A stretch of DNA of 64,000 bases, from NCBI GenBank assembly GCA_050255815.1, contig JBLMVJ010000035.1, positions 10,727-74,726 on the forward strand, in the 5' to 3' direction. Numbering within the stretch: position 1 is the first letter of the stretch; each line of letters begins with the position of its first letter. Source of the DNA: Candidatus Levyibacteriota bacterium (lineage in GTDB: Bacteria > Patescibacteriota > Microgenomatia > Levybacterales > GWA1-39-11). Under the pieces are notes generated by a model, which was not told where the DNA came from, searched no databases, and worked only from the letters and a program-made list of their open reading frames with translations. Shown piece after piece: positions 1,271 to 38,295 of the stretch. Both the position numbers and the translations under genes were made by a program.

Positions 1271-3373
1271 ATGGGAAATAATTCAACCATTATTCTTCTT
1301 AAGAAAATATCTGTTTGGGTACTTTCTTTTGTACTATTCTTCTTCCCTCTTCTCTTTTTAGTAAACGCAACTGATCCATTCCTTTTGCCAAAACAGGTAT
1401 TCCTGGTTATGGCATCTGTAGTCCTGCTGATCCTTTGGAGCGTTATCATGGTCTTTGAAAAAAAGATTATGATCCGGACCAGTCCGTTTAATCTTCCGGC
1501 AGGACTCTTTACTTTAGCAGTACTTATTTCAGCATTCCTCTCCCGGAATATGTATGATTCACTTGCTCTTGCTATTCCGGTGTTGGCTTCTTTCATACTG
1601 TATTTTGTGGCACAAAACACCATATCAAATAAAAAGGATTTACTGTTTGTCTTATCTGCTCTTCTTTTGGGAGGAGCCGTGTCTTCCCTTATCTCAGTTT
1701 TGTACTACCTGAAGATTTACTTCCTTCCTATTCCGGCAATCCAAAGCCAGTACTTCACTACCTTTGGTTCTCCTATCCAGCACATTATTTATATAGTACC
1801 GCTTTTGATTGTTGCCGCCTACTTCCTGTCTAAAGAAGTGAGAGGGAGAAAACCTGAAGCAAACTACAATACTATATTATTTGGCGGACTTACCGGCACC
1901 CTTCTCATCTCTGCCGTCCTCTTAATAGTACAGGTAGTAACTGCACCACAAAAACCACTCTTACTGCCATACACATTTGGCTTCCAGATTGCTACCGCAG
2001 CTATTTCCCAGGACACCACACGCTTCTTAATTAGCCTGCCGTTTGGGTCCGGATTTGGCACATTCTTATCAGACTTTACCAGGTTTAAACTTCCTGATAT
2101 CAATAATGGCCAGCTTTGGGCTGCATCCTTTAGCACTTCTTCTTCTTTTGTCCTGGAGCTTTTAACCACCGTAGGAGTAGTAGGACTTTTAACCTACTTA
2201 TTTATGATTGCCAAGGTATTAAAGAATAGGACAAAAGACACCACCCCATTATTCTTTGCACTGTTAGTAGTGTTCTTAGTCTCATTCTTCCTGCCGCTTT
2301 CTATCATCTCCCTTACCCTTATCTTTATTTTAATGGCGCTGTTTACCAGCACTTTATTCCTGGACCACAGCAAAAATGTATATGATATAAGCCTTTCTAT
2401 AGTAGCTCTAAAACATGGCCTATTCTCTATAGAGGAAACGTCAGGCGCACCTAAGAAAGCTTCAGAATCTTCAAAGGTGCTTCCGATTATTGTAGCGCTG
2501 GTTATCATTCTGGTTGGCGGGTATACCGGGTATCTCTCATTCAAACTCTTGTCTGCAGACATGAAGATGGCAGACTCTTTGTCACAAAGCAAGAGGAACA
2601 ACGGCCAGGCTATTTATGACCTCCAGAGACAGGCGCTCATAGACTTCCCGTACCGCTCTGATTATTACAGGATCTTCTCCCAGATTAACCTGGCTCTTGC
2701 TAACTCTATAGCCGGTGCTGTCCCACAGGGATCTACCCCTTCCACTACGGCACAGGCAACTATTACGCAATTGCTGCAGCAAAGTATTGCAAACGGCAGG
2801 ACTGCAGTAGCCCTGGCTCCTATGAGCTCAGTAAACTGGGAAAACCTTTCCCAAATCTATAGGAGCTTAATAGGGGTAGGACAAAATGCGGGAGAATTTT
2901 CAGTGGCAACCATGAACCAGGCTATCATTTTAGATCCTTCCAACCCACTCCTGAGGGTAGAATTAGGGGGTATCTACTACCAGCTGCAGCAGTATGACGC
3001 AGCCCAAAACCAATTCCAGATTGCAATTAACCTGAAGCCTGACTTTGCAAATGCATACTACAACCTGGGCCATGCTCTTGAAGCAAAAGGAGATCTGAGA
3101 GGTGCAATAACCGCATACCAGGCAGCACAAAGCCTTACCACCAATGATAATGATAAAAAGAGGTTGGATTCTGAAATGGAAGTTATCCTGAAAAAAATTG
3201 GGACAGAGGTAAAACCGGGCACTCAGCCATCAGCAGCTGCTCCATCTGCAGACCAACCACCACTTGGAATAAGTACACCTTCAGCACAACTGCCTAGCCA
3301 AAAAGACCAGGTAAAATTACCTTCACCACCAACTGAAACTCAACCAACAGCCACACCTAAAACTACGAAATAA
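1271..3373 (+). CDS. polytopic membrane protein, O-antigen-ligase/polymerase-like, with C-terminal TPR repeats and a Pro/Thr/Gln-rich tail
   Basis: About 12 predicted TM segments. TPR-like block AQNQFQIAINLKPDFANAYYNLGHALEAKGDLRGAITAYQ. The listed ORF starts at TTG 1235; ATG 1271 is preferred. The O-antigen-ligase assignment comes from architecture only. Confidence 0.6.
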   Translation: MGNNSTIILLKKISVWVLSFVLFFFPLLFLVNATDPFLLPKQVFLVMASVVLLILWSVIMVFEKKIMIRTSPFNLPAGLFTLAVLISAFLSRNMYDSLALAIPVLASFILYFVAQNTISNKKDLLFVLSALLLGGAVSSLISVLYYLKIYFLPIPAIQSQYFTTFGSPIQHIIYIVPLLIVAAYFLSKEVRGRKPEANYNTILFGGLTGTLLISAVLLIVQVVTAPQKPLLLPYTFGFQIATAAISQDTTRFLISLPFGSGFGTFLSDFTRFKLPDINNGQLWAASFSTSSSFVLELLTTVGVVGLLTYLFMIAKVLKNRTKDTTPLFFALLVVFLVSFFLPLSIISLTLIFILMALFTSTLFLDHSKNVYDISLSIVALKHGLFSIEETSGAPKKASESSKVLPIIVALVIILVGGYTGYLSFKLLSADMKMADSLSQSKRNNGQAIYDLQRQALIDFPYRSDYYRIFSQINLALANSIAGAVPQGSTPSTTAQATITQLLQQSIANGRTAVALAPMSSVNWENLSQIYRSLIGVGQNAGEFSVATMNQAIILDPSNPLLRVELGGIYYQLQQYDAAQNQFQIAINLKPDFANAYYNLGHALEAKGDLRGAITAYQAAQSLTTNDNDKKRLDSEMEVILKKIGTEVKPGTQPSAAAPSADQPPLGISTPSAQLPSQKDQVKLPSPPTETQPTATPKTTK

Positions 3374-3375
3374 GT

Positions 3376-5523
3376 ATGGAAAGTAAAGATGTGCCGTCAA
3401 TAGTATCAAAGCTGCAGATAGGCGTGTTGTGCACCATGCTGGTATTATTCCCCTTAGCATTTATTCCTAACTCCACTGACTCATTTACCATGGGTAAGAG
3501 CCTAATCCTCATACTGGGGACTTCCCTTCTTATCCTGTTGTGGGCAATTGCATCTATATATAAGAAAGGCTTTGTCTATAAATCCAGCCCATTTAACCTT
3601 CCGGTTGCCCTTTTTGGCGTAGTGGTACTTATTTCCTCCCTGCTCTCCCGCAATATGTATGATTCTCTTGTTGCAGCTGTTCCCGTAGTCTTCTCTTGCG
3701 TATTGTACTTTACCATTTCTTATATGATAAGCAGCAGAAAAACACTTATTTTAGCTATTACCAGCCTTATTGCCGGCGGCGCACTGACTGCCCTTTTAAG
3801 TACCGCTTACTATCTGAAACTTTATTTCCTGCCTATTCCGGGTATTAATAACCAGTACTTTTCCCCGTTTGGGTCAGGCGTACAGGAAGCAATTTACCTG
3901 ATTGCCCTTCTCATGTTCCCGCTTTTCTCCCTATTAAGACAAACAAAGACCAGAAAGCTTACGGTTACGCAGGATTTCCTCATTGAAGCAGGTTTGGGAG
4001 GCGCACTTTTGATAGGGGTAATCTTTATTACCCTTTCCATCATTACTTCCCCAACCAAACCTATTATATTGCCATACACATATGGCTTGCAGATTGCAGC
4101 CGCTACTATTAGCCAGGATATCTCGCGCCTCTTTATCTCATTCCCATTTGGATCCGGCTTTGGCACGTTCTTAAATGACTTTGCCCGCTTCAGACTGCAG
4201 GAGCTGAACGCAAACACTACGTTTGCTACCGCCTACCCATCCTATTCATCATCTTTTGCCCTGGAGCTGATGACTACCACCGGCATCTTAGGCATCCTTT
4301 CTTACCTCTTTATAGTGTTTAAGGCCTTAAAAACCCGCATGAAAGACAGCAATCCATCTTACTTTGGCCTGGTTATCTTATTTATTGTCTCATTCTTCTT
4401 ACCGTTTGGCCTTCCAACTATTGCACTGGTCTTTATTCTTTTGGGAGTCTATTCATCATCCTTATTCCTGGCAAATGACAGGCGGGTACATAATACCAGC
4501 CTCTCACTGGTTGCCTTTGACCAGGGAATTATTTCTACAGAGGATGTGTTGAGGAATGAGCGGGTTAAGTCTGAGAGTATTATCCTGCCGGTTCTTATCA
4601 CTATCTTAGTGGTACTAATAGGAGGATTTGCTTCATTTATGATGGTACGCCTGGTAGATGCAGACACCAAAATGGTTTCCTCTTTGGTTGTACCTGCCGG
4701 TAAGAAGCTCACCATCCAGCAGCAATATGACTTGCAAAGAAATGCGGTAAATGAATTCCCTTATAAATCAGACTACCAGAGGACATTCTCCCAGCTTAAT
4801 ATGAACCTGGCTAACTCTATTGCTGCCAGCCTGCCAAAAGGCGCTACCCCATCAGCAGTTGTACAGCAAAGCGTCAACCAGCTCTTACAGCAATCAGTAA
4901 ATTCAGCCAGAAGCGCTGCTGATATAGCACCGCTTACTTCAACCAACTGGTCCAATCTGGCACAAATTTACCGGAACCTGATAGGCGTGGGCCAGGGAGC
5001 TGACCAGTTTGCCATTGCAGCCATGAACCAGGCAACACTGTTAGACCCAACCAATCCATTCTTAAGGCTGGACTACGGTGGTATTTATTACCAGTTAAGC
5101 CAGCTGGATGCAGCCCAAAACCAATTCCAGATTGCCATTAACCTGAAGCCTGACTTTGCTAATGCCTATTACAATCTGGGCCATGTGATAGAGTCCAAAG
5201 GAGACCTTTCTACCGCACTTTCTCTCTACCAGACTACCCTTTCCCTGGCCGGAAACAATCCAACAGATAAAAAGAAACTCAGTGATGAAATAGAAGCATT
5301 GAAGAAAAAGATTAATGAAACAGCAGCTACTCAACAGCAGCAGACACCGGTAAACCTGCAGACCAGCGCAGGCCAGCAGCAACCTATTGGCATTAACGCT
5401 CCTTCAGCTCAATTTCCAGCACCTAGCAGGCCGGTAAAACTTCCTCCACCTCCTGGTGCCAGCGCTTCTCCGGAACCGTCTCCTTCGGCTGCTCCCAGGC
5501 CTACGGCCACCCCCACACAATAA
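3376..5523 (+). CDS. paralog of the preceding gene (polytopic membrane protein plus TPR and a Pro-rich tail)
   Basis: Collinear similarity to the 1271-3373 product along its whole length. The ATG lies 3 nt after the upstream stop. Confidence 0.6.
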   Translation: MESKDVPSIVSKLQIGVLCTMLVLFPLAFIPNSTDSFTMGKSLILILGTSLLILLWAIASIYKKGFVYKSSPFNLPVALFGVVVLISSLLSRNMYDSLVAAVPVVFSCVLYFTISYMISSRKTLILAITSLIAGGALTALLSTAYYLKLYFLPIPGINNQYFSPFGSGVQEAIYLIALLMFPLFSLLRQTKTRKLTVTQDFLIEAGLGGALLIGVIFITLSIITSPTKPIILPYTYGLQIAAATISQDISRLFISFPFGSGFGTFLNDFARFRLQELNANTTFATAYPSYSSSFALELMTTTGILGILSYLFIVFKALKTRMKDSNPSYFGLVILFIVSFFLPFGLPTIALVFILLGVYSSSLFLANDRRVHNTSLSLVAFDQGIISTEDVLRNERVKSESIILPVLITILVVLIGGFASFMMVRLVDADTKMVSSLVVPAGKKLTIQQQYDLQRNAVNEFPYKSDYQRTFSQLNMNLANSIAASLPKGATPSAVVQQSVNQLLQQSVNSARSAADIAPLTSTNWSNLAQIYRNLIGVGQGADQFAIAAMNQATLLDPTNPFLRLDYGGIYYQLSQLDAAQNQFQIAINLKPDFANAYYNLGHVIESKGDLSTALSLYQTTLSLAGNNPTDKKKLSDEIEALKKKINETAATQQQQTPVNLQTSAGQQQPIGINAPSAQFPAPSRPVKLPPPPGASASPEPSPSAAPRPTATPTQ

Positions 5524-10553: not shown

Positions 10554-11990
10554 ATGAATTGGACTGCGCTACTAGCGTGGGTGATGGACCCAGTCCGCAC
10601 CCTTGACGAACTTCGGCAGGCGCACCTTGCCCTGATCGGCCATCCCAACATGGGGAACCGCGTTCAGGTGCGTGCGCGCGTGAGGAACTACATCAATCTG
10701 ATGATCGCCACCCAAGGTGGAGGAGCTCCTGCTCCTTGGCACCCTGGCATGGGCGCTCCTGTGGTTCCTCCAACGCCAACACCTGGCCCTGCGCCCGTTC
10801 CTGGTCCTGGCCCTGCGCCCGTTCCTGGTCCTGGCCCTGCGCCCATCGTCCCGCTCGTTCCGGTTGTCGGCTATCGCCCACGCATGTGGACGTACCGCCG
10901 AATGATACGGAGAGCGCTAAACGAGGGCAACACCGCCTGGATGGATACCGAACTCACGGCATGGGGAGACCCTCCGGGAGTCGGCACTCCAGCACAGCGT
11001 GCGTACCGGCTCGAGAACTTCTCGAGGTCACGGCACGGGTGGAACCGCATCGGGCATGATATCCCGGAGCTTGTTCCGCCTGGCGCACCGGCACCGGCAC
11101 CCCGCCGACAGGTGGACTACGGTCCCCTTGGGTGGATCGCAGGTGCTCTGCTGATCGCAGCCGGCGCAGCCGTACTGTTCTTCGCCTTGATTCTGCCTCT
11201 CTCCAAGTGGGGATGGGACCAGAGCTTCGGCGACGACACGGCAGTGCAGCAGCCCGGCAACCAGCCTGGTAACCAGCCCGGCGGCAACAACGGCAACGGT
11301 AGCGGCAACGCGAACCAGCCTGGCAACAACGGCAACGGTAGCGGCAACGCGAACCAGCCCGGCAACCAGCCCGGCAATAGCGGCGTCATCAAGAACTTGG
11401 CCGACGGCCAGTTCCCCTGGACACCGCCCACACCGGGTACCGACCTTGGGAACGACAAGCAGTTCACCAGCACCATCATCGAGCAGGCCAAGCAGGGAGA
11501 CTGGATTCACAGGCTCTTCAACCCTGGCTTGTTCAACGCAGCCAATAACTACGGCGGAGCCGATTCTTGGGCTATTAGCCTGAACGTCGGTCCGAACGCT
11601 GGTGGCAGCTGGAAGGGCGAGGGAGTCTCGGGACGCTTCGTCTACCGTGCTGTGCAGAATCAGGTGGGTTGGTGCCTTGGCATCCTCACCTCGAAGACGT
11701 GGAACAACATCGACCTGAAGAGTCAACTCCTCAGCGGTTCAGACCCCAGTTTGCCGATCGGATTCAACGTCCGCATCGAACCAGGGTCTACCGTGATGGT
11801 GAAGACGAACTCAGGCGAGATCAAGTCCGGCGTCACAAGCGACATGGGTGATATCCAAGTCGTTCTGCCAGACAGCGGGCTGACCACCATCTGCACTGCG
11901 TTCAGCACTGCAGCACCTACGGGTGAAAGCCAGCTTTGGGTGGGACCTCGGGACCGCTCCAAGGACATCAACACGATCGACGCGCGGTAA
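10554..11990 (+). CDS. repeat-rich single-pass membrane protein of unknown family (high-GC island)
   Basis: The listed ORF starts at TTG 10524; ATG 10554 is preferred because GGAGAG sits at 10543-10548. Contains a PGPAPVPG repeat, one TM helix (LGWIAGALLIAAGAAVLFFALILPL), a QPGN/NGNGSGNA repeat, and a ~270-aa C-terminal domain. Confidence 0.6.
   Translation: MNWTALLAWVMDPVRTLDELRQAHLALIGHPNMGNRVQVRARVRNYINLMIATQGGGAPAPWHPGMGAPVVPPTPTPGPAPVPGPGPAPVPGPGPAPIVPLVPVVGYRPRMWTYRRMIRRALNEGNTAWMDTELTAWGDPPGVGTPAQRAYRLENFSRSRHGWNRIGHDIPELVPPGAPAPAPRRQVDYGPLGWIAGALLIAAGAAVLFFALILPLSKWGWDQSFGDDTAVQQPGNQPGNQPGGNNGNGSGNANQPGNNGNGSGNANQPGNQPGNSGVIKNLADGQFPWTPPTPGTDLGNDKQFTSTIIEQAKQGDWIHRLFNPGLFNAANNYGGADSWAISLNVGPNAGGSWKGEGVSGRFVYRAVQNQVGWCLGILTSKTWNNIDLKSQLLSGSDPSLPIGFNVRIEPGSTVMVKTNSGEIKSGVTSDMGDIQVVLPDSGLTTICTAFSTAAPTGESQLWVGPRDRSKDINTIDAR
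10776..10847 (+). repeat. about 3 tandem copies of a 24-nt unit (cctggtcctggccctgcgcccgtt) encoding PGPAPVPG
   Basis: Units read directly at 10776-10799 (partial match), 10800-10823 and 10824-10847. Confidence 0.85.
11283..11360 (+). repeat. two tandem copies of a 39-nt unit encoding GNNGNGSGNANQP
   Basis: 11283-11321 and 11322-11360 differ at only 1 of 39 positions. Confidence 0.9.
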
Positions 11991-12410
11991 CGCACGGCGA
12001 TCCCAGACTCCTCGGAGTTGCCGATGGAGAGTACCTTAACGTCACGAGCACCGCCTAACCGCTGTGATGATCGTGGTCCGCCTGGAAAAGGAGGTTGACG
12101 ATAACCCTCTGGGTTGTCAGGATCCTGAGCGCAAGCTTGAGGATCTCCTCCACTACGGCGGACAGACTGGACAGTTTATGTGTTTCACGCTCCTTTGAGT
12201 TTTGCATTCAAAGAAAGTCGTGTCACGGCAAAAACTGGTTCCAGTCAGGGTGAGAGACTCATTTATTGAGAATTGATTGGATTTTTTCCATCAAGTCTCT
12301 TTTGAGACTTTCTCCCACCTACATGCCTTTGCGTCTCCCTCACCATTATGGTGAGGGACTGATGAGTATTCTTTCGGAGAAATCTGAGGGAAACGAAACG
12401 CAAAAAAAAC

Positions 12411-13211
12411 ATGAGCATATTAAAATCTGTCCTTTTCTTTATCTTATTTTTGGCTGTTGCAGCCGGGGCTTTCTATGGGGTAGCTGAGCCCCAAAACACC
12501 CTTATTTCTTCCGTAGGCCCTATGCAGCTGACTGCCGGAGGTGCAGGACTCAGCCTGTTCCAGGGAAGCACCGGGCAGTATTATGATTTCTCACCATTTA
12601 AAGATACGGTAACCTTCCAGAACACTACCACTAACGCGCTGGTTACTGCCCAGGATATCCAGTCAACCGGTTATAAAACTTCCCTAAAAGTACCGTTCAT
12701 ACAGAATCTATGGGAAACCTTTCTCTTTTACACAGGAGCAGACACCCCTTCCATGAGGTTTCTGACCGGCAAAAACATCACCTACTCCTCTACCATTAAA
12801 GCCAACAAATTAATAGTCACCAGGACTATTCAGGGGGAGAAAAATCCTATTACAAAAACTGATATGACCATTACCTTTCATGCTATGGATTTTGTGTTTG
12901 ACCGGACAGGAAATTTATATAATTATGTAGACCCTGGAACACAGTCATTCTTTGAGCAGACTTATAACAAAACCTTGACACCTCAGCTGAATGACACTTC
13001 TATCACTGTTATGGGAAATATTGTTTTTATTTATAACCCTAAAATTGCCGCCGTTATGGCTATCCAAACCGTAGGGAACCAGACTATTACGGTGGACCGG
13101 AATGAGAAAGTAATCAGGATTTCTGAAACACCAAAGGTAAAAAACAATATCTACCAGGATTCTCTGCAGGTAACCGTTTTAAACACGCCAAAGGAGGCTT
13201 TTAACCTATGA
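12411..13211 (+). CDS. hypothetical membrane-anchored or secreted protein
   Basis: N-terminal hydrophobic anchor, 266 aa, with a 4-nt ATGA overlap onto the next gene. Confidence 0.55.
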   Translation: MSILKSVLFFILFLAVAAGAFYGVAEPQNTLISSVGPMQLTAGGAGLSLFQGSTGQYYDFSPFKDTVTFQNTTTNALVTAQDIQSTGYKTSLKVPFIQNLWETFLFYTGADTPSMRFLTGKNITYSSTIKANKLIVTRTIQGEKNPITKTDMTITFHAMDFVFDRTGNLYNYVDPGTQSFFEQTYNKTLTPQLNDTSITVMGNIVFIYNPKIAAVMAIQTVGNQTITVDRNEKVIRISETPKVKNNIYQDSLQVTVLNTPKEAFNL

Positions 13212-33598: not shown

Positions 33599-33719
33599 GT
33601 CCTGGCCTTGACCTATCTTCCCATGTTGTGTAACAACAAAGTATTGTGAGCGCTGACGTGTTTCACTTCTCTGTTCGGAATGGGAAGAGGTGGGACCACA
33701 TCGCTCTAAAGACCAAGAC
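33599..33719 (-). rRNA. rrf: 5S rRNA
   Basis: The reverse complement reads TCTTGGTC...GGTCCCACCTCTTCCCATTCCGAACAGAGAAGTGAAAC...GGCCAGGA, with helix I pairing between the termini. Confidence 0.85.
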
Positions 33720-34000
33720 TCAAGAGCAAAACCGGTAAGATCCGAATCTACTCGAATAGTTTGGGGTAACTTCTAGGCTACCCCATTCTTCTCGAATATT
33801 TCGAATTAACATTAACAAACACTAGCGCATTCGAATTGATTCGATTTAAATTCGAACCATTCGAGAATGATTTCTTAGAATCCACGCTATTTGGATCGAC
33901 CTATTAGTACAACTTCGCTGAAACAGTTACCTGTCTTACACGTGTTGCCTATCAACCTGATGGTCTCTCAGGGGTCTAAAAGAGATCTTATCTTAGGGTG

Positions 34001-34033
<33 letters not shown>

Positions 34034-34268
34034 CATGGAAATCTAGCTACCCAGCAGTGCACTTGTAAGTACAACTGGCACACCAGGGATTTCCTCACCC
34101 CAGTCCTCTCGTACTAGGGGCGACTCCCTTCAAATCTCAAACGGTTGTCCTGGATAGAGTCCGAACTGTCTTACGACGTTCTTAACCCAGCTCGCGTACC
34201 TTTTTAACTGGCGAACAGCCAGACGCTTGGGAGCTTCTCCACCCCCGCGCTAAGATGAGCCGACATCG

Positions 34269-34698
34269 CTGTCAATCCAATCAGTAATTAAGAAAGACTT
34301 AAAAACTTAAAACTGATGGTGATACTCTTGTTACCAAGAGCCTCTGACTATACCTTCATCCGCCAACTGGCGGAGCTAGTCGTATGATACAGATTATAAA
34401 TTTCTCTTTATGAGATGAATCCATATCTCACCCTCTCACCTATGCTGGTGAGGGGTTCAGTCGATAGGGTCCAAAAGAAATTTAAAATTCAGAAGTTAAA
34501 ATTCAGAATTAAATTCTTAATTCTGAAATCTGAATTCTTAACTCTATTTGAACCTCGGTATTACCCTCTTGTGTTCAGAAAGTAGGGTTTCACCGATTTG
34601 GACTAGTTATTTAAATTATTAGTACCTTGTTTTTTGACTCAAATACTAATAAATACAGGCAAGAGTATTACTACTCAGGCGCCCCGATATTTTCATAT
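34269..34698 (-). mobile_element. group I-type intron (430 nt, no ORF) after the E. coli U2500 equivalent
   Basis: Exon junction is GGCACCU | CGAUGUCGGCUC. The 5' exon ends in U and the intron ends in G. GATGAAGGTATAGTC (reverse complement of 34346-34360) resembles the group I J8/7-P7 core. Confidence 0.7.
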
Positions 34699-34742
34699 AA
34701 GGTGCCAAACCGCATCGTCGCTGTGGACGCTTGGATGCGATC

Positions 34743-34775
<33 letters not shown>

Positions 34776-35230
34776 AAGCTACGTCCCAACCACTAAGGAA
34801 CGCAGGATCACTAACACCTGCTTTCGCACCTGCTCGACTTGTAGGTCTCGCAGTCAAGCTGGCTTGTGCGTTTGCACAATACGCTCCGATTTCCGTCCGG
34901 AGTTAGCCAACCTTTGTACGCCTCCGTTGCACTTTAGGAGGCAACCTCCCCAGTTAAACTGCCCACCAGACACTGTCTTTTAGCCGTATTTTTATGCGGC
35001 ATTAAAGTAATGCTCACTCATCTTAAAGAGAGGTATTTCATTGATGACCGAAGTCTCCCTCCTATACTAAACAGTTAAAATAAGCTTGCAAATGTCAAGC
35101 TACAGTAAAGCTCCCGGGGTCTTTTTGTCCTAGGACAACCAGGCCGCGTCTTCACAGCCATCTCAATTTCGCCGTGTAAATGTTCAAGACAGTTACTCAG
35201 TCGTTCTACCTTTCGTGCGGGTCGGAACTC

Positions 35231-35548
35231 CATTGTTTTAATGTTCCAACATGGAACCTCACAGTCGCCTGTGAGATCGGACTATATCTTTCCCTTACCA
35301 AATTGGTGAGGGATCTAGCGTCTAGTCTCTGAGGGTTTTCCGATAAATCGGAATCTTCCCTGCTGATTGGCTCCACCAAGCAGATTTTTACTCTTACGAG
35401 TACTGTTGGATACTGAGCTGTTCCAGCAAATAGCTAGATTTTACACTCATTTAGGTTAACGATTGTGTTCTTACGTGACTGTTTTGCTTGTTCCTGATGT
35501 GTATCCCGATTAGATCGGGACTCGGGCAAGTTGATTTGACCCAAACCA
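35231..35548 (-). mobile_element. group I-type intron (~318 nt, no ORF) after the E. coli U1951 equivalent
   Basis: Exon junction is UCCUUGUCGGGU | (G)AGUUCCGACC. The 5' exon ends in U and the intron ends in G. AAGATATAGTCC (reverse complement of 35279-35290) and GAGACTAGACG core-like motifs are present. Confidence 0.65.
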
Positions 35549-36885
35549 ACCCGACAAGGAACTTCGCTACCATAGAACAGTTATAGTTACTGCTGCCGTT
35601 CACCGGAGCTTTAGAAAGCGGCTCCACCTTGCGGTTTCACCACCCACTATTGACTTACCGGCACTGGGCAGGTGTCAGCCCCTATACGTTACCTTTCGGT
35701 TTTGCAGGGACCTGTGTTTTAGATAAACAGTCGCTAAGTAATCTTTTGCTTAACCTGGATGTTACTCCAGGCAGGGCATCTCCCATAGGTTACGCCCAGC
35801 TTTTGTTGCCGAGTTCCTTGAACATTTGTCTCACGGTCGCCTTAGTCTACTCGACCAATCCACCTGTGTCGGTTATGCGGTACGGCAAAATATAGCACTC
35901 CTCACGAATCTTTTCCTGAAGACTGAAACTTACGATCCTCACCCTACTTTCTTGCGATTTCAGATTTGCATTCGCCACTTAATTAAACACTTTGACGGAT
36001 TTGCCCATCAAAACTATCTTATGGCTTGGACCCTGTTTACAGGGCGATCCTTTCCACTCTTGTCCATCCTTGAGTAATAACGCACTATACTCTGTAGCAG
36101 AATATTAACTGCTTGTCCATCCGGCTACCCCGCGCTTTATGACGGGCCACCGTTAGGAGCCGACTAACGCTGCGCTGACTTACATTGCGCAGCAAACCTT
36201 GGATTTTCGGCGGACGCCGTTCTCAGGCGTCATTCGCTACTCATGCCGGCATTCTCACTTGTAAACGCTCCACCATACCTTACAGTACAGCTTCGCTGCA
36301 TTTACGACGCTCCCCTACCACTTGCTCCGATAAATCGGAGTCAAATCTCCATCGTCGGTATTAAGCTTAATCCTCGATCATTTCCGGCGCCATTCTCCAA
36401 TGTCGACTAGTGAGCTGTTACGCTTTCTTTAAAGGATGGCTGCTTCTGAGCCAACCTCCTAGCTGTCTATGGAAAATGACTTCCTTATCAACTTAGCTTA
36501 AATTTAGAGACCTTAGATGGGAGTCTGGGCTGTTTCCCTTTAGACCCACGAGCTTAGCCCCGCAAGTCTGACTCTCTATTAAGTTTTTACGGTATTCGGA
36601 GTTTGATTGATCCTGAAAAGTTGCCTCTCCAGAGACCATTCAGTGCTCTACCCCCGTAAAAACATACAAAAGGCTATACCAAAATATATTTCGGGGAGAA
36701 CCAGCTATCTCCAGGTTCGTTTAGTATGTCACCCCTTACCACAAGTCGTCTCAGATCATTGCTGCGATCACGAGTTCGGGCCTTCCTCATCCTTTCGAAC
36801 AAGTTCACCCTGCTCATGGTAAGCTCACCTGGTTTCGGGTCTTTTGCAATGCGCATTTAGGTATCCCAGTTAGAGATCGCTTTCA

Positions 36886-36992
36886 CTATGCCTCCCCCCT
36901 CACCTTTCCAACGAAAATTCCAACCTTTGTTTTAAATCGAGCTTGTTTCGATAATATTTCAAAGTGGTAATCCTCATTAGAATGGTGAGGGG
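36886..36992 (-). other. 107-nt stem-closed expansion/insertion in the 23S domain II helix-25 region
   Basis: Closed by cccctcacc (36886-36894) pairing with ggtgagggg (36984-36992). Absent from the E. coli and B. subtilis sequence as I recall it. Confidence 0.5.
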
Positions 36993-37360
36993 TTAGACTG
37001 CGCAATACAAAAACTCACCGGCTCATTCTTCAATAGGCACGACGTTATACCCTTGCGGGCACTTCGTCTGCTTGTTAGCTAATAGTTTCAGTAACTCTTT
37101 CATTCCCCTCCCGGGGTGCTTTTCACCTTTCCCTCGCGGTACTAGTTCACTATCGGTAGATGTTGATATTTAGCTTTGGAGCGTGGTCGCCCCGGCTTCC
37201 CACAGGGTTTAATCGTACCCCATGGTACTCAGGAACAGGCAAGAAGTGAAAATCATTTCAAATACGGGACTATCACCCTCTTTGGTCTCTTTTTCCAAAA
37301 CGTTCTTCTATGATTTCCATTTGTGACTTCTTTTGCATTTAAGCAAGCCGTCCTACAACC

Positions 37361-37660
37361 CCCCTCACCTTTTTATCACTAACCTTTTTAAAAGTTCTTG
37401 CCAAGCTTTTGCGCGCTTCTTAAGCGCCTGCTCTCTTCTAAAAGCTAATTTATAAGAAGTATATGCTTCATAATAAATAAGCTCCCATGGCAAAAACTTT
37501 TTAGTATATATAGACTTTCCTTTATTATGGTCCGTAAATCGAGTTTTAAGATCTTTTGTTGAACCAATATAAAACTGGTCGAACTTTACACTCTTAAGAA
37601 TATACGTGTAGAACATAAGTCTATTATAGTTATTTAAGTTAGGAACAAAAAGGTGAGGGG
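37361..37660 (-). mobile_element. 300-nt stem-closed intervening sequence in 23S domain I carrying a GIY-YIG ORF
   Basis: Perfect 10-bp closing stem: cccctcacct (37361-37370) with aggtgagggg (37651-37660). It replaces the short hairpin that follows ...CAGCYCAAACC in other bacteria. Confidence 0.6.
37365..37616 (-). CDS. small GIY-YIG (URI-domain, COG2827/YhbQ-like) nuclease encoded inside the 23S insertion
   Basis: MFYTYILKS...FYIGSTKDLKTRFTDHN...E...ALKREQALKK pattern. Same orientation as the rRNA. The stop codon lies within the closing stem. Confidence 0.8.
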   Translation of the reverse strand: MFYTYILKSVKFDQFYIGSTKDLKTRFTDHNKGKSIYTKKFLPWELIYYEAYTSYKLAFRREQALKKRAKAWQELLKRLVIKR

Positions 37661-38003
37661 TTTGAGCTGTTCCGCGTTCGCTCGCCGCTACTGACGGAAT
37701 CTCTGTGATTTCTTTTCCTCGGACTACTTAGATGTTTCAGTTGGTCCGGTATCCCGCCGACTACTAATATATTAATCTTGCGACTAATAACTTCATAGCA
37801 GGCTCCCAGTTAAACTGGGGGGTTTCCCCATTCGGACACCACCGGATCATAATGTCTTCGGCCATTCCCCGGTGATTTTCGCGAGCCAGATGCGTCCTTC
37901 TTCGGTCAACACCTCCTAGGCATCCACTATTAGCATGAATCAAATAGCGTAGATTCTAAAAAACCAATTCATTAAAAACCATGCCTCGGCTTGAAACATG
38001 GAA

Positions 38004-38028
38004 AATCCGCCACCCGGCGGATTTTTTT
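38004..38028. terminator. GC hairpin with flanking A/T runs in the tRNA-Ala to 23S spacer
   Basis: aatccgcc-accc-ggcggatt followed by T7 on the plus strand, and by TTTTCC on the minus strand. Confidence 0.35.
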
Positions 38029-38222
38029 AATCCTCCGTCCCGATTAGATCGGGACTTCGGCCTAGTTGTTTGTTTGTAATTCTTCCAATTATTAATGAGC
38101 AAAACGCTTTTTGCGTTGCCCTCGGATGTAATCCGAGGCCATATCTCTCCTGTACTCGTTTCTCGCCGGGAAGTATATTGCCCTTCCACCAGCGAGGAAC
38201 CAATACAAGAAAACTAAAAAAG

Positions 38223-38295
38223 TGGACCCAAGGAGATTTGAACTCCTGACCTCGTCATTGCAAATGACGCGCTCTACCAGCTAAGCTATGGGCCC
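38223..38295 (-). tRNA. tRNA-Ala (anticodon UGC)
   Basis: The reverse complement GGGCCCATAGCTTAGCTGGTAGAGCGCGTCATTTGCAATGACGAGGTCAGGAGTTCAAATCTCCTTGGGTCCA folds as a cloverleaf with G3:U70. CCA is not encoded. Confidence 0.95.

Follow-up and report, generated by a model that had tools for sequence, protein, structure and literature searches.

A conserved GIY-YIG nuclease gene framed by a long hairpin in the 23S rRNA gene of a Levyibacteriota bacterium may be one copy of a mobile cassette

The 64,000-nucleotide stretch of contig JBLMVJ010000035.1 analysed here (the window), from a Candidatus Levyibacteriota bacterium, carries a 23S ribosomal RNA (rRNA) gene with an insert that holds a gene of its own. 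We show that this insert is a conserved nuclease gene under purifying selection, framed by a long hairpin. The two ends of the insert pair with each other, and the loop between them is taken up almost entirely by an open reading frame (ORF) for a small GIY-YIG nuclease. [quoted passage not shown]

A nuclease gene in the loop of a long hairpin

The host 23S gene is 4067 nt long, against 2925 positions in the Rfam model, and is preceded by a transfer RNA (tRNA) gene for alanine and followed by the 5S gene (Table 1). In the Rfam alignment the hairpin at model positions 274-300, directly 3′ of ...GAACAGCUCAAACC, has 281 nt in place of its roughly 3-nt loop; mapping to Escherichia coli puts this site just past nt 265-275, AGCCCAGAGCC. 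The interrupted hairpin belongs to domain I, and we take it to be helix H15 of the standard numbering, which is absent in E. coli. The helix names H15, H25 and H28 are used throughout on this assumption, and the Rfam and E. coli coordinates were computed.

The original prediction described a perfect 10-bp stem closing the insert, and positions 37361-37370 (CCCCTCACCT) are indeed the exact reverse complement of positions 37651-37660 (AGGTGAGGGG). The closing helix exceeds this length, with 14 perfect pairs, or 17 when G-U pairs are counted, followed by a 1-nt bulge and 7 more pairs, giving 24 bp. Folding of the insert yields a minimum free energy of −101.4 kcal/mol (z = −7.2), and 0 of 100 shuffled sequences were equally stable. 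Also as predicted, the loop contains an 83-codon ORF in rRNA sense that starts with ATG and encodes 83 amino acids, and the TGA stop codon lies within the stem, inside the GGUGAGGGG arm. The 3′ arm doubles as coding sequence for the C-terminal ..RLVIKR and the stop. The non-coding part of the insert amounts to 45 nt, and no Rfam intron was found in 37361-37660, in keeping with the earlier statement that there is no room for a ribozyme. A group I intron with a homing gene is rejected on these two grounds. Separately, both arms look like ribosome-binding sequences, AAAGGUGAGG in the 3′ arm being Shine-Dalgarno-like and UCACCUUU in the 5′ arm resembling the 3′ end of 16S rRNA, a likeness that may be coincidence.

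Table 1. Positions of the cassette, the related hairpins and neighbouring features in the window
Feature	Positions	Strand	Basis and remarks
Cassette: arm, −10 box, GIY-YIG ORF, arm	37361-37660	minus	Rfam alignment, E. coli mapping, fold
5′ C-rich arm, RNA sense CCCCUCACCUUUUUGUU-C-CUAACUU	37636-37660	minus	Outer 14 nt invariant in 8 relatives, inner part covaries
3′ G-rich arm, RNA sense AGGUUAG-U-GAUAAAAAGGUGAGGGG	37361-37385	minus	Pairs with the 5′ arm
TATAAT, −10-like box	37623-37628	minus	Ends exactly 6 nt before the ATG
83-codon GIY-YIG nuclease ORF	37365-37616	minus	ATG 37616-37614, TGA 37367-37365, Pfam PF01541
23S rRNA gene, host of the insert	33883-37949	minus	Rfam RF02541, 2126.5 bits, model 1-2925
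ORF-less hairpin, CCCCUCACC...GGUGAGGGG, 97 nt, 79-nt interior	36896-36992	minus	In place of the hairpin loop at E. coli 604-624 (H28)
Small 'empty' hairpin, CCCCUCACC-AGCAUA-GGUGAGAGGG, 6-nt loop	34431-34455	minus	Inside the U2500 insert
Fourth palindrome, core as in the others, TCCCTCACC-ATTAT-GGTGAGGGA	12336-12358	plus	Intergenic, outside rRNA
Gap between ORFs, 420 nt	11990-12411		No Rfam match
Group I intron in 23S after E. coli 1951	35231-35548	minus	Rfam 35258-35526, 80.5 bits
431-nt insert in 23S after E. coli U2500	34269-34699	minus	Preceded by U, last base G
Operon: tRNA-Ala(UGC), 23S, 5S	33600-38295		

Conservation of the H15 cassette

A look-up found no record of the exact window protein. 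Its homologues number 143 and come from CPR bacteria wherever a source is named. For the closest proteins (P0001, P0004 and P0005), 13 of 13 contigs have the ORF in sense orientation at one and the same site within 23S, and this also holds for P0008, P0010, P0012 and P0014. One contig with an H15 cassette, L015, belongs to a Levybacteria genome (collected loci are designated by L numbers and the window copy by WIN). The original prediction had named disruption of the ORF in most relatives as a refutation; to the contrary, we found the 83-codon ORF intact in 8 of 8 distinct copies. Among these copies the ratio of nonsynonymous to synonymous substitution (dN/dS) lies at 0.04-0.38 and synonymous sites are almost saturated, and a +1-frame control on the H15 orthologues gave values of about 1-3.5.

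The framing helix is conserved together with the gene. Every H15 orthologue has a closing stem of 21-30 bp, whose outer 14 bp are invariant. The inner stem covaries, with six pairs changed on both sides, though the 3′ arm encodes the C-terminus LLKRLxIxR. A TATAAT box stands 6-10 nt upstream of the ATG in six of the eight orthologues. ORF pairs that are closest to each other are also closest in the flanking rRNA (L002 and L008 flanks are 93-96% identical; WIN and L014 3′ flanks are 83% identical), a pattern that, at the level of sequence, fits vertical inheritance of the H15 cassette with its rRNA through a clade related to Levybacteria.

Relationship of the protein to minimal GIY-YIG nucleases

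The ORF product matches the Pfam GIY-YIG family (PF01541) at 57.5 bits (E = 1.7e-15; curated cut-off, 22.6), and residues Y4, Y15, R25, H29, E49, R60 and E61 are invariant across 32 sequences. Its AlphaFold 2 (AF2) model has a mean confidence score (pLDDT) of 95.6 and a beta-beta-alpha-beta-alpha layout, in agreement with the GIY-YIG core fold of a three-stranded sheet and flanking helices. Foldseek returned UPF0213 and Slx1 (the latter with TM 0.68, rmsd 2.0) as the best structural matches, with the I-TevI catalytic domain more distant (TM 0.54). Profile searches agreed, matching 1zg2 (3.6e-11), 1ywl (7.5e-09) and Slx1 (about 5e-05); as the first two, both UPF0213 (YhbQ-like) proteins, are the nearest solved relatives, the earlier assignment to a YhbQ-like GIY-YIG protein stands. 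Alignment of the CPR profile by hhalign to a Sinorhizobium (S. meliloti) GIY-YIG protein gave a probability of 97.3% (E = 2e-11, 32% identity); the gene for that protein has canonical Ssn-related motifs on its two flanks.

By the published definition of the minimal Slx1/UPF0213 group (PMC1564403), the protein belongs there, having a single domain, 83 amino acids and no invariant Asn after E61. Stand-alone minimal GIY-YIG proteins form the Slx1 lineage, separate from the lineage of homing enzymes (Dunin-Horkawicz 2006, PMC1564403). The model for group I intron endonucleases, TIGR01453, scored 18.9 bits against a cut-off of 56.05. Judged by sequence and predicted fold, the protein is a minimal Slx1/UPF0213/Ssn-like nuclease and not an I-TevI-type homing enzyme. 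The description 'homing-type nuclease' in the original prediction is thus doubtful, given the missing DNA-binding domain, the low TIGR01453 score and the Slx1/UPF0213 affinity, and I-TevI-type homing endonuclease was rejected as an identity on the small size of the protein, its lack of a DNA-binding domain and the same model score.

Relatives at other rRNA and tRNA sites carry arms of the same kind

To place the H15 cassette in its family we gathered 160 further loci by similarity to the window ORF, from species-representative genomes and metagenomes, among the matches listed; more than 580 relatives were confirmed per scan. The metagenome relatives among the matches listed show 44-60% identity, and none of them belongs to the close H15 clade. 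A flanking inverted repeat scoring at least 12 was present at 99 of 144 distinct ORFs, inside or outside rRNA. The arms share the consensus CCCC[C/T/G][A/C]CACC...GGTG..GGGG; the 5′ arm starts with CCC, in most cases as CCCC[C/T/G][A/C]CAC(C), and overlap of the 3′ arm with the stop codon is frequent. Proteins are more alike within an arm class than between classes, with identities of 64% and 53%, a gap reached in 0 of 500 permutations. Within the sense-strand stem pairs, G-U pairs outnumber A-C mismatches by 103 to 44 (symmetric count), which indicates that the stem is selected in a single strand.

Elements embedded in rRNA genes make up 23 of 148 distinct members, and 23 of 23 lie in sense. 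Orientation was established by Rfam for four loci and for the others by blastn against E. coli 16S and 23S. The sites number at least six: near E. coli positions 270, 540 and 2630 in 23S, and near 68, 440 and 1130 in 16S. A tRNA gene lies within 150 nt of 29 elements; the 31 tRNAs concerned all point in the same direction as the ORF, compared with 70% of tRNAs farther away, and they mostly begin 2-18 nt past the ORF stop codon. The occurrence of arm-bearing relatives at these rRNA sites, beside tRNAs and elsewhere means that the unit is not tied to a single 23S target. In 23 of 104 elements the arms are immediately bordered by direct repeats of 8 nt or more, which are seen in 3% of controls; the commonest length is 11 nt, and the repeated stretch frequently corresponds to the 11 nt at the start or end of the tRNA. 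The position of the −10-like box is likewise a family trait: in 29 of 145 members such a hexamer has its end precisely 6 nt upstream of the ATG, against about one per other position, and among these 29 there are nine perfect TATAAT boxes and about half with a TGn extension.

Several loci are worth describing individually. Cassettes abutting a tRNA with a duplication of about 11 nt on the far side were seen 5′ of tRNA-Ala or tRNA-Val at L045, L150, L142, L089, L174 and L127, and 3′ of a tRNA at L143, L144 and L168. At tRNA-abutting cassettes the outer bases of the arm also belong to the acceptor-stem strand, and a cut by RNase P at the 5′ end of the tRNA would fall inside the cassette stem. At L115, L128, L169, L069 and L173, 21-35 nt of the tRNA 5′ portion are duplicated upstream of the cassette and a complete tRNA follows it; in three of the five the duplication ends at anticodon position 34. 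From their sequences, these loci look like insertions within a tRNA gene in which the gene has been restored. At L159 (622-2785), about 2.1 kb including a GIY-YIG cassette is inserted near 23S model positions 2643-2655.

Hairpins with the same arms and no ORF

The 9-mer CCCCTCACC from the arms occurs five times in the 64-kb window, against 0.53 expected, and always within 23S; the repetition of the arms is therefore not due to chance. In all, the window holds three ORF-less cognate hairpins. The longest sits at H28, where the arms AACCCCUCACC...AAAGGUGAGGGGGG are those of the H15 insert. It is confined to the lineage of the window, L008, L014 and L181 having a short native hairpin there. We rejected the idea that the H28 hairpin is a deletion derivative of the H15 cassette, as similarity between the interiors was not significant (z < 3); given this absence of homology, we retain for H28 the statement that the arms are the same. 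A second hairpin, with one CCCCUCACC arm pair, lies within the U2500 insert, and the remaining palindrome falls in the intergenic gap listed in Table 1, which could hold an unrecognized RNA gene or be another landing site.

The pattern extends to the family. Extra copies of a locus's own arms were found at 20 of 72 loci, with 36 occurrences against 9.2 for non-cognate arms, and six such copies that we inspected (at L154, L085, L026, L112 and L023) are near-perfect ORF-less hairpins of 38-133 nt. The combination seen in the window recurs independently at L083, where the ORF copy in H15 has the arms CCCCATCCATCATG and an ORF-less insert in H25 has the near-identical arms CCCCTCCATCATG. At L024 (about 3610-3700) the GIY-YIG cassette is in H25, and H15 there is an ORF-less hairpin with arms of about 20 bp resembling those of the window (CCUAACCUUUAAUUGA...). 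H25 of L008 contains a different, repeat-rich insert, and at L154 a group II intron D1-D4 match (3292-3370) lies just downstream of a 16S gene with three hairpin copies.

Comparison with known systems

Insertions of this general kind have been described. Tsurumaki et al. (2024, J Bacteriol, PMC11270868) counted CPR GIY-YIG ORFs in rRNA insertions, 15 in 16S and 15 in 23S, none of them introns; the authors considered that these ORFs probably stand outside homing, and Brown et al. 2015 is cited there. The elements studied here are like them in occurring in both 16S and 23S, in being neither group I nor group II introns and in being scattered sparsely over several sites. The suggestion in the original prediction that a GIY-YIG ORF in such a place would be new was thus too strong, such ORFs having been published already. 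In the text of PMC11270868 that was searched we found no description of hairpin arms, ORF-less cognate hairpins, sense-only orientation, tRNA association, duplications or a −10 box, and literature searches on GIY-YIG cassettes in Patescibacteria found none of this architecture. What seems new here is the family arms, the ORF-less hairpins, the co-orientation, the duplications at tRNA ends and the −10 spacing; the GIY-YIG ORF itself falls in the published class.

A further parallel is Ssn, a single-domain GIY-YIG nuclease (cd10448) that cuts single-stranded DNA beside hairpin repeats flanking its own gene (Chenal et al. 2025, Nat Commun, PMC11893778) in a layout that its authors liken to an insertion sequence. 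Both are single-domain GIY-YIG proteins of about 90 amino acids (less than 150), their genes are bracketed by inverted, hairpin-forming repeats, the repeats occur in many ORF-less copies, and repeat variants differ by lineage along with the protein. The CPR cassettes differ in lying in or beside rRNA and tRNA genes, a location that goes unmentioned in PMC11893778.

Other systems share parts of the architecture. Like the RNase III-processed 23S intervening sequences (IVSs) of Salmonella, Leptospira, Coxiella and others, the H15 insert stands where a surface hairpin would have its tip, and its two ends pair into a long double-stranded stem; an ORF is present in some IVSs, and they too are found in reduced genomes with a single rRNA operon. 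Known IVS ORFs are S23p/23S_rRNA_IVP, whereas the ORF here matches only GIY-YIG and T5orf172 in Pfam. The known 23S IVS sites are helices 9, 25 and 45, not H15. Repetitive extragenic palindromes with their RAYT genes (REP/RAYT), and miniature inverted-repeat transposable elements (MITEs) with their autonomous parents, resemble the cassettes in that a gene-bearing copy is framed by palindromes and short gene-less copies have the same ends, but the enzyme here is a GIY-YIG hydrolytic nuclease rather than a Y1 (HUH) or any known transposase. Set beside an insertion sequence, the cassette has the terminal inverted repeats, and its only ORF is the GIY-YIG nuclease, with no transposase of a known family. 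UPF0213/YhbQ and Slx1 proteins provide the best sequence and structure matches and are likewise single-domain and without a conserved C-terminal Asn; in the available accounts they are described as stand-alone repair-type genes with neither a framing hairpin nor an rRNA location, and identity is about 30%. The homing endonucleases I-TevI and Seg share the catalytic superfamily and the association with mobile DNA. These enzymes are of about 250 amino acids, with a linker and a DNA-binding domain, belong to a UvrC-related lineage and act at double-stranded target sites without framing hairpins. The T4 SegB gene is located in a tRNA gene cluster (PMC2330249).

A proposed cassette mechanism and the alternatives to it

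The cassette consists of a C-rich arm, in some copies a −10 box, a GIY-YIG gene of about 83 codons and a G-rich arm overlapping the end of the gene. In the mechanism that we propose, the arms would pair in the precursor rRNA into a helix of at least 24 bp, which would rebuild a stem like that of H15, facing the solvent side of the subunit, and loop out the ORF. The sequence suggests that RNase III, for which closing helices of 21-30 bp are a typical kind of substrate, would then cut the helix, the most likely enzyme because the helix is long and nearly perfect, removing the insert and leaving 23S in pieces as in a classical IVS. Translation could use the excised RNA or, alternatively, a leaderless mRNA whose TATAAT lies 6 nt before the AUG. 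By analogy with Ssn, the nuclease probably recognizes the hairpin of its own arms (CCCCTCACC...GGTGAGGGG) in single-stranded nucleic acid, and in this way the cassette and its ORF-less copies would be maintained in the genome and enabled to spread.

More tentatively, the family may represent a hitherto unrecognized class of mobile element in CPR bacteria. The only gene of such an element would be a minimal Slx1/Ssn-like GIY-YIG nuclease housed in the loop of the element's own terminal hairpin. It would insert at rRNA hairpin tips and tRNA ends, always in sense and sometimes with a duplication of about 11 bp, seed ORF-less copies, and be expressed and released through the transcription and processing of stable RNA, by RNase III in rRNA and by RNase P at tRNA 5′ ends. 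If this is right, such a class would explain a share of the non-intron rRNA insertions of CPR bacteria.

A number of observations weigh against the mobile-cassette reading. No flanking duplication was found at the window copy, and the H28 interior shows no homology to the cassette, so these particular copies can be called mobile only putatively; the long vertical inheritance of the H15 copy would also suit a domesticated gene. A clear −10 box is missing in two of the eight orthologues, and a sigma-70 scan of the insert gave no −35/−10 pair and no −35 element, so that the promoter proposal draws on the −10 box by itself. The likeness to Ssn has limits as well: the Ssn gene stands between two complete hairpins, whereas the CPR gene sits inside one split hairpin, as its loop, and the published Ssn-related motif (SRM/NTS, HGTCWY...RNCYNB) occurs 0 times in the window and 8 times, against 4 in shuffled sequence, in 803 kb of family loci. 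As that motif is not enriched, we do not count the cassette among the canonical Ssn loci. Finally, the family counts and p-values overstate independence, because the loci are related and were gathered by similarity to the query.

Classical homing, in which the GIY-YIG enzyme would cut H15 rDNA that lacks the insert, repair would copy the insert in and the stem would serve only to remove it from rRNA, would account for the identical 23S position across the clade. The GIY-YIG superfamily also includes well-known homing endonucleases, and the I-TevI catalytic domain does match the window protein structurally. We nevertheless regard homing as quite improbable. The protein has neither the size nor the DNA-binding domain of such enzymes, scores far below the TIGR01453 cut-off and falls in the Slx1/UPF0213 branch, which Dunin-Horkawicz 2006 (PMC1564403) set apart from the homing lineage. 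Relatives whose arms are of this kind lie at many sites unrelated to one another, and some have flanking duplications. Homing, to our knowledge, leaves no such duplications. As the genomes usually have a single rRNA operon, homing would moreover need exchange of DNA between cells.

Another possibility is that the insert is an expansion segment retained in mature 23S rRNA, extending H15 at the surface, and the nuclease gene a domesticated housekeeping gene of YhbQ-like repair type expressed from its own −10 box. Long vertical inheritance, strong purifying selection, the conserved −10 box before the ATG and the presence of a single gene copy in the window all speak for this, and H15, H25 and H28 are presumably surface sites that tolerate expansions in other lineages. 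It would leave unexplained the family arms, the ORF-less hairpins, the duplications and the scatter over rRNA and tRNA sites across lineages, and it would be unusual for every ribosome to keep an AT-rich coding loop of 280 nt; we think this explanation unlikely. We are similarly doubtful that the arms are purely signals for RNA processing or stability that the nuclease does not recognize, with spread due to hairpin recombination or to an unlinked enzyme. The G-U bias of the sense strand could simply reflect the transcript, and some ORF-less hairpins are terminator-like (for example GAAA-stem-TTTT in L026). Yet the arm sequence, not just its pairing, is kept across proteins that are 45-60% identical, arm class tracks the protein, and the related Ssn nucleases have been shown experimentally to recognize their own flanking hairpins sequence-specifically (PMC11893778). 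That the ORF is dead and decaying, left over in an rRNA expansion specific to the lineage, has nothing in its favour beyond the AT-rich composition of the insert and is refuted by the intact copies, the low dN/dS, the invariant catalytic residues and the confident fold.

Implications for rRNA insertions in CPR bacteria

In CPR bacteria, rRNA genes are unusually rich in insertions. Those of intron type are explained by LAGLIDADG homing enzymes; the non-intron insertions, including those with GIY-YIG ORFs, had been left unexplained. Our analysis links non-intron rRNA insertions to a hairpin-framed nuclease cassette that resembles Ssn and hairpin-repeat systems, and this link gives them a concrete mechanism that can be tested. 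It also supplies natural pairs of nuclease and hairpin with specificities open to assay. The proposed mechanism predicts that 23S rRNA is broken at H15 and H28 in the lineage of the window.

Other inserts and the setting of the 23S gene

The host 23S gene has two further inserts (Table 1). The group I intron after E. coli 1951 contains no ORF of at least 60 amino acids. The insert after U2500, which includes the small hairpin described above, matches a group I intron model below threshold (24.4 bits, E = 4.7e-4).

No 16S gene is present in the whole 64-kb window. L002 and L008 have protein genes upstream of the tRNA, which indicates that 16S is unlinked in this clade. Repeated arms within an rRNA gene may contribute to assembly breaks inside the 23S genes of these organisms. 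Cassette-bearing contigs are mostly shorter than 2 kb, and the independent assemblies L002, L012 and L013 end at 23S model position ~650, that is, at the H28 hairpin.

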